Assembly (NCBI RefSeq): GCF_046105845.1
Contig: NZ_CP151004.1
Length of the DNA: 64,000 nucleotides
Direction: 5' to 3' (one strand)
Source: Escherichia coli
Lineage (GTDB): Bacteria > Pseudomonadota > Gammaproteobacteria > Enterobacterales > Enterobacteriaceae
Position 1 is the first letter of the stretch, and each line of letters begins with the position of its first letter. Below the pieces are notes generated by a model. That model searched no databases and was not told the origin of the DNA. It was given only the letters and a program-made list of their open reading frames with translations. A program made the position numbers and the translations under genes. Positions 40,223 to 45,463 of the stretch are shown in pieces.

Positions 40223-43200
40223 ATGGCTTCAACAAATGCGCATCAAATAAAAAATAATGATCAAAACTCTTTATGTGGTCTGGGTGACAAAATACGCCGC
40301 CTGACCGCCGGAGTTTGTTTATTTACACAAATTTTTTTCCCCGTCATGGCGACGGCACAAAATGTGGTACACGCTAAGCCTCAGACGACAGTTTCATCTC
40401 CGTCCCCTCTAATAGAAAATAATACTGTGCCTTACACGCTTGGTGCGCTGGAATCAGCGCAAAGCGTTGCTGATCGATTCGGTATTTCACTGGAGGAGCT
40501 TCGTCGTCTTAATCAGTTCCGTACTTTTGCTCGCGGCTTTGATAACGTGCGCCAGGGTGAAGAGCTGGATGTTCCGGCAACAACCTTGCAGAAAAGTCAT
40601 GAGCAACAAAATGCCGTACCGCCTGCGAATGGCGAAAACACGCTGGAGAATCAAATAGCCAGCACTTCGCAGCGAGTTGGCACCCTGCTTTCACAAGATA
40701 TGAATAGTGAGCAGGCCAGCGGCATGGCGCGTGGTTGGGCGTCTTCAGAAGCCTCAGGCGCGATGACTAATTGGTTAAATAACTTTGGCACTGCGAAAAT
40801 CTCTTTGGGTGTGGATGAAGATTTCAGCCTGAAAAATTCGCAATTCGACTTCCTGCATCCGTGGTATGACACACCCGATTATCTGCTCTTCAGCCAGCAT
40901 ACCCTTCACCGAACAGACGATCGTACCCAGATCAACACCGGTTTGGGCTGGCGTCATTTCACCCCCAGCTGGATGTCAGGCATCAACCTGTTTTTTGACC
41001 ACGACCTGAGCCGCTATCACTCCCGCGCGGGGCTTGGCGCAGAATACTGGCGTGATTATCTGAAGTTGAGCAGCAACGCTTATATCGGCCTGACCGGCTG
41101 GCGTAGCGCACCGGAATTGGATAATGACTACGAAGCCCGCCCGGCCAACGGCTGGGATTTACGCGCGGAAGGCTGGTTACCAGCCTGGCCACAACTGGGT
41201 GGAAAACTGGTCTATGAACAATACTATGGTGATGAAGTGGCGCTGTTTGACAAGAATGATCGCCAAAGTAATCCCCATGCTATTACCGCGGGCCTCAACT
41301 ATACCCCCTTCCCGCTTCTGACTCTCAGTGCGGAACAGCGTCAGGGGAAACAAGGTGAAAATGACACACGTTTTGCCGTTGATCTGACCTGGCAACCCAG
41401 CAGTTCAATGCAGAAACAGCTTAACCCGGACGAAGTGGCCGGACGGCGCAGTCTGGCCAGTAGTCGTTATGACCTGATTGATCGCAACAACAACATCGTT
41501 CTGGAATATCGCAAGAAAGAGCTGATTCGCCTGAGTCTGCTGGATCCGGTGAAAGGAAAGTCTGGAGAAATAAAACCGCTGGTTTCCTCGATACAGACCA
41601 AATATGCCCTGAAAGGCTATAACATCGAAGCCGCTGCGCTGGAAGCTGCCGGAGGTAAAGTCAGCACTTCCGGAAAAGATATCACGGTTACGCTGCCAGG
41701 TTATCGCTTCACTAACACTCCAGAAACCGATAATACATGGTCGATAGACGTTACCGCCGAGGATGTAAAAGGGAACCTGTCACGGCATGAACAAAGCATG
41801 GTCGTCATTCAGGCTCCGACATTAAGCCAGAAAGATTCTCTGTTATCCGTTAATCCGCTAACCGTAGCTGCAGATAAAAAATCGACGACCACATTGACCG
41901 TTACTGCGCACGATTCCGACGGAACTCCGGTGCCGGGGCTGGCGCTGCAAACCCGCAGTGAAGGCGTTCAGGATATCACCCTGTCTGACTGGACAGATAA
42001 CGGTGATGGTAGTTACACACAGATGCTGACCGCCGGAACGACATCAGGTTCAGTAACACTGACGCCGCAAATTAACGGTGAGAGTGCGGTAAAAGAATCC
42101 ATTGTCGTTAATATCGTCCCTGTTGTCTCATCCCGCGACCATTCATCAATAACAATAGATAACGTATCGTATTATGCCGGAGACGACATCAAGGTTAGGG
42201 TGGAACTGAAAGACGACAGCAATCAACCGGTTGCATATCAAAAAGAGGAATTGGTAAAAGCCGTTACTGTCGAAAACAGCAAACCTGGCGCCACGATTGT
42301 CTGGCACGAAGAGCGGCCTGGCGTTTATACCGCGAATTATCCGGCCCATAAGCAAGGGACAGCACTAAGGGCACAACTTAGCCTTCACAACTGGAATGCT
42401 CCACTGCAATCGCATATTTATAACATTGAGGCAAACCAGAATAAGGCTCGCGTCGCCACATTATCAGCGACGAATAATGACGTTTACGCCGATAAAAAGA
42501 CATTTAATACCCTCACTATCAACGTCACTGATGAGAGTGATAATCCCCTGACAAATCATCAGGTCACCTTTAAGAATGAAAAAGGAAGCGCTGAATTTGT
42601 CGAACCGCCGCAGCAAAATACGGATGCATATGGTGTTGCCACAATCAACATGGTAAGTCAGGTTGCGGAAGAAAATACGATTAGTGCCACGCTGCCAAAT
42701 GGTTTCTCACAACGGATAATTGCGAAATTCGTTAGCGATTCGAGTACGCCAAAATTCAAACAACTGGTTGCCGATCCAGATACCATTATTGCTGGCAACA
42801 GCCAGGGCAGTACTCTGACCGCCACCGTCACAGACTTTCATAACAACCCGTTAAAAGATATGAAAGTGAATTTTGTGGCACCTGGTGGCTCGCAACTGGA
42901 CAACACGTCCGCCACAACAGACCAGTCCGGTATTGTGCGAGTGCACCTGACCAGTTCAAAAGCTGGTAGCTATTCCGTCGATGCCTCGCTTGAGGCGAAT
43001 AAAAATATTCACCAGTCGGTCACGATCACCGTGGTCCCAAACAGGGAACAATCGGTAATGACCTTGAATGCCGGGTCGGGCAGTGCGATCGCTAACAATA
43101 CAAATACCGTTATCCTGACAGCCAGTGTGAAAGATGTTTACGGACACCCGTTGCCGGATGAGGATGTGAAATTTACCTTGCCAGCCTCCATGACCGGGAA

Positions 43201-45463: not shown

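Follow-up and report, generated by a model that had tools for sequence, protein, structure and literature searches.

Inverse autotransporter gene iatD of Escherichia coli lies within a 10.4-kb alternative haplotype of the yjiK–yjiJ region

Introduction

The closest described relatives of the gene reported here are the inverse (type Ve) autotransporters invasin, intimin, YeeJ, IatC and IatD, which display variations on a common architecture. Invasin of Yersinia pseudotuberculosis (structures 4E1T and 1CWV, D1–D5) shares with IatD the barrel, the D4–D5 cap fold and the disulfide cysteines, but, unlike IatD, lacks a LysM, and its four Ig domains compare with about 11–12 in IatD. Intimin of EPEC and EHEC (4E1S, 1F00, 2ZQK and 2MPW) resembles IatD in its LysM, barrel, Ig domains and C-type lectin-like tip; however, iatD lies outside the LEE, with no tir in its vicinity, and the IatD passenger is much longer. 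YeeJ has the same succession of LysM, barrel, Big_1 array and lectin-like cap, with both cap cysteines kept, but is encoded at another locus, has a longer passenger (2,359 aa in SMS-3-5; Goh et al. 2019, mSphere, PMC6714894), and shows no DNA similarity to iatD detectable past about 2 kb. IatC (EcSMS35_4024 in SMS-3-5; size-variable, 2,459–2,965 aa; PMC6714894) is similar in overall architecture and is likewise encoded at a different locus.

The iatD gene as such is already known: a 2019 study named and cloned it, localised its product and described a phenotype, and annotation pipelines label it. Its published size is 5,241 bp, IatD of SMS-3-5 is surface-exposed by immunofluorescence and promotes biofilm formation on overexpression in K-12, assays for autoaggregation and binding of extracellular matrix proteins were negative, and no repeat-number variability was found (Goh et al. 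2019, PMC6714894). The only new point made here is that iatD lies within a 10-kb strain-variable block in which the shared genes are unusually diverged.

Results and Discussion

Identification of iatD

The window, a 64,000-nucleotide stretch of the E. coli contig NZ_CP151004.1 (RefSeq assembly GCF_046105845.1), contains an open reading frame that begins with ATG and runs uninterrupted through 1746 amino acids to its stop in the translation of the window; its coordinates and those of the other features are given in Table 1. The gene has the same size as published iatD, and the predicted protein is identical to SMS-3-5 IatD (EcSMS35_4876, ACB20062.1) at 1711 of 1746 residues (98%), with no gaps and at equal length. 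The order yjiJ–iatD–kptA is common to SMS-3-5 and the window, so that near-identity, length and position all match EcSMS35_4876, and the two genes agree in size, locus and domain order. The 35 amino acid substitutions are clustered in distal Ig domains, at approximately residues 1380–1460. In the closest complete genome the start and stop of RefSeq iatD coincide with those of this reading frame; the nearest complete-genome allele has 99.2% DNA identity, and the RefSeq product name 'inverse autotransporter IatD' is found among the matching genomes listed. No NCBIfam model reaches its cut-off on the protein, the best being the IatC N-terminal model, and the name is therefore taken from near-identity and not from an HMM.

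Table 1. Features of the iatD region, with positions in the window; residue numbers are those of IatD.
Feature	Position	Strand	Basis
Alternative haplotype with iatD, 10.4 kb	35241..45615	+	Alignment to iatD-less genome; genome counts
espX6-like pentapeptide-repeat gene	35579-37669	.	Within haplotype
yjiK'	37888/37924-38766	.	Within haplotype
yjiJ' (yjiJ, upstream neighbour of iatD)	38834-40012	+	Within haplotype; ORF/annotation
yjiJ–iatD intergenic region, 210 bp, AT-rich, presumed promoter/regulatory region	40013..40222	+	Sequence; function presumed
iatD, inverse (type Ve) autotransporter adhesin	40223..45463	+	ORF; RefSeq name; near-identity to SMS-3-5; dN/dS
Long N-terminal signal peptide (~ residues 1-45)	40223..40357	+	Read from translation
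Divergent LysM (~ residues 69-118)	40427..40576	+	Family profile against LysM structures
Inverse-autotransporter beta-barrel (residues 148-423)	40664..41491	+	Pfam IAT_beta
Ig-like rod (~ residues 440-1543)	41540..44851	+	Pfam; self-profile search
Distal cap (~ residues 1547-1746): invasin-D4-like Ig and C-type lectin-like domain; Cys1660, Cys1742	44861..45460	+	Profile; AlphaFold2; Foldseek
Perfect 12-bp hairpin, 4-nt loop, 16 nt past iatD stop, between convergent iatD and kptA	45479..45506	.	Sequence; fold
REP-like imperfect palindrome	45533..45555	.	Sequence; fold
kptA, downstream neighbour, 194 aa	45584..46168	-	Annotation; comparison

Parts of the gene do resemble other E. coli inverse autotransporters: the barrel region has 76–77% DNA identity to yeeJ, the cap is 47–51% identical to YeeJ-type caps, and the best NCBIfam match, over residues 12–839, is to IatC. 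A reading in which the gene is yeeJ, iatC or the intimin gene deserves almost no credence, as the NCBIfam scores fall far under their cut-offs (1120.6 against 2400 bits for NF040978, the IatC N-terminus; 359.7 against 1400 bits for NF033627, intimin; 299 against 999 bits for SinH), the yeeJ similarity is limited to query positions 422–2217 and does not extend past the gene's initial ~2 kb, the gene is flanked by yjiJ and kptA and not by LEE genes, and 98% identity over the full length is reached with IatD alone, at the corresponding locus. We are thus highly confident that the gene is the E. coli iatD orthologue, encoding a type Ve adhesin and standing at the distal end of an alternative haplotype of 10.4 kb; nothing contradicts the iatD identification. 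The preliminary description had recognised an uninterrupted 1746-aa reading frame for an intimin/invasin-family inverse autotransporter adhesin, as is confirmed here, and comparison with the known E. coli members supplies the identity as IatD, which it had missed.

An inverse autotransporter gene of Citrobacter sp. Cu233 also lies beside a yjiJ homologue, but is not taken as an iatD orthologue: its product is 1042 aa long, with 45% identity across the N-terminal 700 aa, and its neighbours differ.

The alternative haplotype

When the window is aligned to a genome without iatD, identity is 97% on the left, followed by a gap, then falls to 80.4% across yjiK–yjiJ, and after a second gap returns to 97.8%. 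The iatD gene is the last of a haplotype consisting of the espX6-like gene, yjiK', yjiJ' and iatD, in which the 3' end of kptA is also rewritten: kptA has 194 codons in the window and 184 at iatD-less loci, with its last 10 codons within haplotype-specific sequence. Identities to the yjiK–yjiJ segment of the window fall into two groups, 636 genomes at 95% or above and 2960 at 80–90%. Linkage across the block is indicated by the near-equal totals for iatD, the yjiK'–yjiJ' allele and the pentapeptide-repeat gene (637, 636 and 637 genomes, respectively), together with the 617 genomes in which the whole 10.4-kb block is contiguous. In about 12% of complete E. coli genomes, the K-12-type yjiK–yjiJ segment is replaced by this haplotype.

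The preliminary description had placed iatD as an insertion between yjiJ and kptA. Those neighbours are correct, and with the yjiJ and kptA stops lying 12 nt apart at iatD-less loci, iatD does look like a clean extra gene. A single-gene insertion, or mini-island, is nonetheless improbable, because yjiK–yjiJ differ so strongly between genomes with and without iatD while the flanks are 97–98% identical, because their identities are bimodal, the espX6-like gene is found in a similar number of genomes and the full block is unbroken in 617 of them, and because no integrase, transposase or att-like repeat was found at the haplotype borders. What stands at this position is therefore one end of a 10.4-kb haplotype with diverged yjiK and yjiJ, an espX6-like gene and an altered kptA end, and not a lone insertion.

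The yjiK' and yjiJ' alleles have 80–84% identity to their counterparts in every Escherichia species sampled, against 87–97% for the K-12-type alleles; relative to Citrobacter and Salmonella, both types stand at about 70%. This difference would place the origin of the block in a lineage that split off ahead of the divergence of the known Escherichia species. We give roughly even chances to the proposal that the four genes form one non-recombining haplotype of such descent, either by introgression from an unsampled relative or as a very old balanced polymorphism. A scan with YjiJ' found nothing closer than 91% amino acid identity and no donor species, and a search with the IatD passenger against 100,044 species-representative genomes gave no relative, a result that excludes only close orthologues since it used exact 8-residue words. 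If the proposal is correct, an adhesin, a putative T3SS effector, an SdiA-regulated-domain protein and an MFS transporter are being kept together as a unit. A linked and deeply diverged 10.4-kb haplotype is of modest interest as a population-genetic curiosity, and could point to the origin of the adhesin.

Distribution and maintenance

Of 5426 complete E. coli genomes, 637 (~12%) cover at least 80% of the iatD passenger query, in accord with the earlier view of a strain-variable adhesin; strains with this surface protein include O157:H7, APEC and K1 strains. In nearly all of the listed matches from these 637 genomes the gene is annotated as iatD without a flag, and dN/dS is 0.15–0.20 against two alleles, with the cap included. 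From these two observations iatD appears to be maintained by selection.

The presumed regulatory region upstream of iatD offers some grounds for regarding the gene as silent or decaying. It is AT-rich (GC is 0.40 in 40000–40499), and although a GGAAGG ribosome-binding site lies 5 nt before the ATG, a promoter scan upstream of iatD gave one weak sigma-70-like site (40027–40056, 9/12 match) that does not rise above shuffled sequences, and we claim no promoter. The function of IatD is known from overexpression alone, and related E. coli inverse autotransporter genes are silent under laboratory conditions, FdeC being described as under H-NS regulation and IatB protein as natively undetectable (PMC6714894). 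That iatD is a relic without present function is nevertheless very unlikely, given the 5.2-kb reading frame unflagged in nearly all of the listed matches, the low dN/dS, which extends through the cap, and the conservation of the cap cysteines and fold.

Domain organization

All of the domain classes named in the preliminary description are present. The N-terminal signal peptide is long, with a hydrophobic core LTAGVCLFTQIFFPVMATA followed by QN, and its probable cleavage site was placed from the translation. The LysM that follows is divergent: Pfam LysM gives E = 0.028–0.06 on the IatD sequence itself, which is below significance, but a profile of 15 homologous inverse-autotransporter N-termini matches the LysM structures of LytE (4e-15), 4uz2 (4e-11), Ecp6 (1e-5) and, weakly, intimin (2mpw, 0.15), and among the 15 homologues Pfam LysM is found in 8 at E ≤ 0.001 and in all 15 at E ≤ 0.1. 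At the profile level IatD therefore has the pre-barrel LysM seen in the large LysM-bearing members (intimin, YeeJ, IatC and IatD). The barrel is matched by Pfam IAT_beta at E = 7e-108 over model positions 2–279 of 279, with further matches across the whole chains of the invasin (4E1T, E = 2.7e-83) and intimin (4E1S, E = 1e-67) barrels. It lies N-terminal to the passenger, as is characteristic of the inverse autotransporters.

The C-terminal passenger is composed of Big_1/Invasin_D3 Ig-like domains. Nine are clear (539–631, 745–838, 846–937, 946–1041, 1050–1140, 1150–1240, 1243–1336, 1346–1439 and 1447–1543; Pfam E ≤ 1e-13, self-profile 4e-29 to 2e-34), one at 641–735 is weak, and the post-barrel segment at 440–535 is without a domain assignment. 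The long Big_1-type array was correctly recognised at the outset. It had also been taken to suggest that recombination between its repeats makes the adhesin variable in length. An array of at least nine tandem Big_1 domains would seem suited to this, and such variation is known in other repeat adhesins and in the sizes of IatB and IatC (PMC6714894). Recombinational length variation of IatD is unsupported, however, and we consider it most improbable, because the repeats share little identity and the passenger is constant in span among the matches listed: the domains have 14–42% mutual amino acid identity, exact DNA repeats do not exceed 12 nt, direct repeats reach 20–25 nt at only 72–76% identity, Tandem Repeats Finder reports no repeats in iatD, and the 3281-nt passenger query aligns over 3281–3284 nt, with two IS-disrupted copies as the sole exceptions. 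The published absence of repeat-number variation (PMC6714894) agrees with this. Global pairwise DNA identities between the Ig repeats (62–77%) are too high, an effect of aligning short segments globally with gaps, and were not used.

The distal cap matches invasin 1CWV by phmmer (E = 7e-13), and a profile of the cap family matches invasin (3e-35) and intimin (5e-7). An AlphaFold2 model of the cap built from a 54-sequence alignment has a pLDDT of 96.2 and a pTM of 0.90; an earlier model of residues 1440–1746 from an 11-sequence alignment (pLDDT 51) was discarded and not used for the fold search. With the cap model as query, Foldseek places 1CWV first (TMq 0.81, rmsd 2.6 Å, at only 24% identity), followed by intimin 1F00 and then by snake-venom C-type lectin-like proteins (TMt ~0.6). 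As modelled, the terminal Ig domain is packed on a C-type lectin-like domain, as at the tips of invasin and intimin. Cys1660 is kept in at least 90% of the 54 homologues and Cys1742 is invariant, and the two probably form a disulfide. The Cys-containing, possibly lectin-like C-terminal domain proposed earlier is thus borne out by both fold and conservation. With the C-terminal 307 aa as query, a word-indexed protein search gave only 14 matches, mostly fragmentary and YeeJ-like, with caps ~49% identical.

Four residues past the first cap cysteine, invasin has an Asp, the integrin-binding Asp911. Its position aligns to Asn1664 of IatD, followed by Asp1665, and for this reason integrin binding by IatD cannot be inferred from the alignment. 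The high-confidence model of residues 1547–1746 does provide a defined construct for receptor screening.

Export and folding can be outlined from the established behaviour of intimin and invasin and the domains found here. The long Sec signal peptide would direct the protein to the periplasm, where the LysM would remain and would be expected to bind peptidoglycan, and residues ~148–430 would form a 12-stranded outer-membrane barrel. The C-terminal passenger would be threaded out through this barrel and fold into a rod of ~11–12 Ig-like domains, which would hold the invasin-type Ig and C-type-lectin-like cap, closed by a single conserved disulfide, well away from the cell surface. The allele in the window would be expected at the surface like the 98%-identical SMS-3-5 protein.

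Sequences downstream of iatD

The strong hairpin beyond the iatD stop had been described as the gene's own terminator. The hairpin is present, but it lacks a U-tract, as its 3' arm is followed by one more U and then by CAG; a consensus terminator scan passed over it, with no call on the + strand. It may act as a terminator, either weak or bidirectional, or may stabilise RNA. At Rfam gathering thresholds, no RNA family is found within or adjoining iatD. Between the hairpin and kptA is an imperfect palindrome (CCTGATGCGCTGCGCTTATCAGG), presumably a REP element judging from the REP consensus, and a 107-nt stretch containing both the hairpin and this REP-like hairpin has a folding energy of -31.3 kcal/mol (z = -3.2).

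The adhesin gene is iatD

The adhesin ORF of the preliminary description, whose coordinates proved exact on an ORF check, is the already known and named gene iatD, since it is nearly identical to EcSMS35_4876 of strain SMS-3-5, named iatD and cloned by Goh et al. 2019, mSphere (PMC6714894). The window and SMS-3-5 proteins share 1711/1746 residues with no gaps, and the SMS-3-5 gene has the same length (5,241 bp) and locus order, yjiJ–iatD–kptA. The entire 40000–45700 region is present by megablast in 636 of the 5,426 complete E. coli genomes, where the annotation reads 'iatD: inverse autotransporter IatD' (top match 99.2% identical). 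Overexpressed in K-12, SMS-3-5 IatD is surface-exposed by immunofluorescence and promotes biofilm formation in microtitre and flow-cell assays, and was negative for autoaggregation and for binding of ECM proteins; its LysM, barrel, Big_1 and C-type lectin domains are also already described (PMC6714894).

Features of the iatD region (window coordinates)
Feature	Position	Strand	Remarks
696-aa pentapeptide-repeat protein gene	35579–37669	+	low-GC stretch (0.32–0.39)
yjiJ	38834–40012	+	upstream neighbour of iatD
Ribosome-binding site GGAAGG	5 nt before iatD ATG	+	
iatD	40223–45463	+	uninterrupted ORF, ATG start, 1746 aa
Hairpin	45479–45506		perfect 12-bp stem, 4-nt loop; between convergent iatD and kptA
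REP-like hairpin (palindrome)	45533–45555		between iatD and kptA
kptA	45584–46168	-	convergent downstream neighbour of iatD

A diverged haplotype carries iatD

The only aspect of this locus without a match in the literature searched is the 10.4-kb diverged haplotype to which iatD belongs. The gene had been described as a lone insertion between yjiJ and kptA, but alignment of 17 kb of the window to the iatD-less locus of KFu022, where 12 nt separate the stop codons of yjiJ and kptA, reveals a longer linked block. Identity is 97.1% up to 35240, followed by a 2.7-kb segment missing from KFu022 (35241–37929) that contains the low-GC pentapeptide-repeat gene, by yjiK-yjiJ at 80.4% identity (37930–39996), and by iatD, also missing from KFu022, before resuming at 97.8% from 45616 on. 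The right junction falls within kptA: KptA is 194 aa long in the window versus 184 aa at the empty site, with a 10-residue C-terminal extension encoded by haplotype-specific DNA (45584–45615, minus strand).

The iatD passenger is found in 637 of the 5,426 genomes, confirming the suspected strain variability, as is the pentapeptide gene; the window-type yjiK'-yjiJ' allele (at least 95% identity) is in 636, and the entire 10.4 kb is contiguous in 617. K-12-type yjiK-yjiJ (80–90% to the window) is carried by 2,960 genomes, with no intermediates at 90–95% among 3,596 genomes, and a megablast match to 37930–39996 is absent in 1,830 further complete genomes. The pentapeptide gene is annotated in O157:H7 records as espX6, a T3SS effector; it is more variable than iatD, with only 90–95% identity to the window in most genomes, and strain E300010 carries a frameshifted copy.

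The iatD-linked alleles stand about twice as far from every sampled Escherichia species as E. coli does, because window-type yjiK-yjiJ DNA is 80–84% identical to E. whittamii, Escherichia sp. E1V33 and other Escherichia representatives, whereas the flanking genes show ordinary distances (87–92% to other Escherichia, 76–78% to Citrobacter and Salmonella). K-12-type yjiK-yjiJ is 87–97% identical to the same Escherichia representatives, and each type shares about 69–72% identity with Citrobacter and Salmonella. When species-representative genomes were scanned with YjiJ', no allele exceeded 91% amino-acid identity, and a search seeded on exact 8-residue words found the IatD passenger in none of 100,044 species representatives. 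The block's origin is most simply read either as introgression from a relative that has not been sampled or as a long-standing balanced polymorphism.

In Citrobacter sp. Cu233, a yjiJ homologue of 60% identity is immediately followed by a 1042-aa inverse autotransporter (locus L028, 12120–15248). This protein has the LysM, barrel, Ig and lectin-cap plan of IatD and shares 45% identity with it across the first 700 aa. The remaining neighbours, which encode a LysR regulator and a YiaA-like protein, are unlike those of iatD. This pairing is possibly a hint of an old association, or a coincidence.

A terminator scan found no plus-strand terminator-like site after yjiJ, so iatD is possibly co-transcribed with yjiK'-yjiJ'. 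The two hairpins downstream of iatD fold together at -31.3 kcal/mol (z = -3.2), bearing out the hairpin previously noted, but not its role as a terminator: the 12-bp stem is followed by one further U only and then CAG, and a consensus terminator scan called no plus-strand terminator downstream of iatD. The 45479–45506 hairpin may have a weak effect in either direction, or it may stabilise RNA. Genomes without iatD have no REP-like palindrome in their 12-nt yjiJ-kptA spacer.

Domain organization of IatD

The domain order is a signal-like N-terminus, LysM, barrel, Ig rod, and an Ig plus lectin-like cap, in line with the preliminary description from the LysM onwards. The inverse-autotransporter barrel is confirmed by Pfam IAT_beta (residues 148–423, E=7e-108) and by full-length matches to the solved barrels of invasin (4E1T, 2.7e-83) and intimin (4E1S, 1e-67). 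Pfam and a self-built repeat profile together identify nine clear Big_1/Invasin_D3 domains (residues 539–1543) and one weak Ig domain (641–735); neither assigns a domain to the post-barrel segment 440–535. LysM gives only a partial Pfam match on the IatD sequence itself (E=0.028–0.06). A profile built from 15 homologous inverse-autotransporter N-termini matches many solved LysM structures, among them LytE (4e-15), 4uz2 (4e-11) and Ecp6 (1e-5), with intimin LysM 2mpw at 0.15, and Pfam detects LysM at E<=0.001 in 8 of these 15 proteins; we accept a predicted divergent LysM at about residues 69–118.

The cap (~residues 1547–1746) is of the invasin type. The C-terminal 307 aa hit invasin 1CWV (E=7e-13); a profile built from 54 sequences and covering the final 210 aa gives E-values of 3e-35 for invasin and about 5e-7 for intimin. 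An AlphaFold2 model built on the 54-sequence alignment (pLDDT 96.2, pTM 0.90) superposes best in Foldseek on invasin D4-D5 (TMq 0.81, rmsd 2.6 Å), followed by intimin and then by snake-venom C-type lectin-like proteins. Beyond the signal peptide IatD has just two cysteines, Cys1660 and Cys1742, which are kept across the family and align with the invasin disulfide positions. The Cys-containing, possibly lectin-like C-terminus of the preliminary description thus holds and gains precision.

By analogy with established intimin and invasin work, IatD would be exported by Sec, its barrel inserted BAM-dependently and its C-terminal passenger exported via a hairpin; the LysM would anchor the protein to peptidoglycan, and the distal cap would recognise a ligand.

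Selection and length constancy

iatD is under purifying selection, with dN/dS of 0.20 versus the SMS-3-5 allele and 0.15 versus that of E300010 (0.17 and 0.09 for the cap). These low values argue against iatD being a decaying relic, as does its annotation without a pseudogene flag in nearly all matches listed, among which the only broken alleles are copies disrupted by IS3-family and IS2 insertions (NZ_CP101866.1 and NZ_CP169309.1).

Recombinational length variation, proposed from the repeat array, is rejected. Tandem Repeats Finder reports no tandem repeats in 40000–45700, the longest direct repeats are only 20–25 nt at 72–76% identity, and the longest exact repeat within iatD is 12 nt. The Ig domains share 14–42% amino-acid identity pairwise (mean 26%); these repeats are old and diverged, and therefore offer no substrate for homologous recombination. 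The 3,281-nt passenger query aligns over 3,281–3,284 nt in the matches listed, and the published comparison of IatD proteins, >98% identical to one another, detected no differences in repeat number (PMC6714894).

Other elements in the window

The sole Rfam gathering-level match in the 64-kb window is the SymR antitoxin RNA (RF01809, 93.5 bits) at 13772–13848 on the minus strand. Two giant minus-strand ORFs at 16828–26523 are PADLOC matches to DruE3 (2114 aa, 2697 bits) and DruH3 (1112 aa, 1829 bits) and constitute a type III Druantia anti-phage system; its neighbours include ORFs of hsdR/M/S size (6945–13615) and an REase-like ORF (14328–15725).
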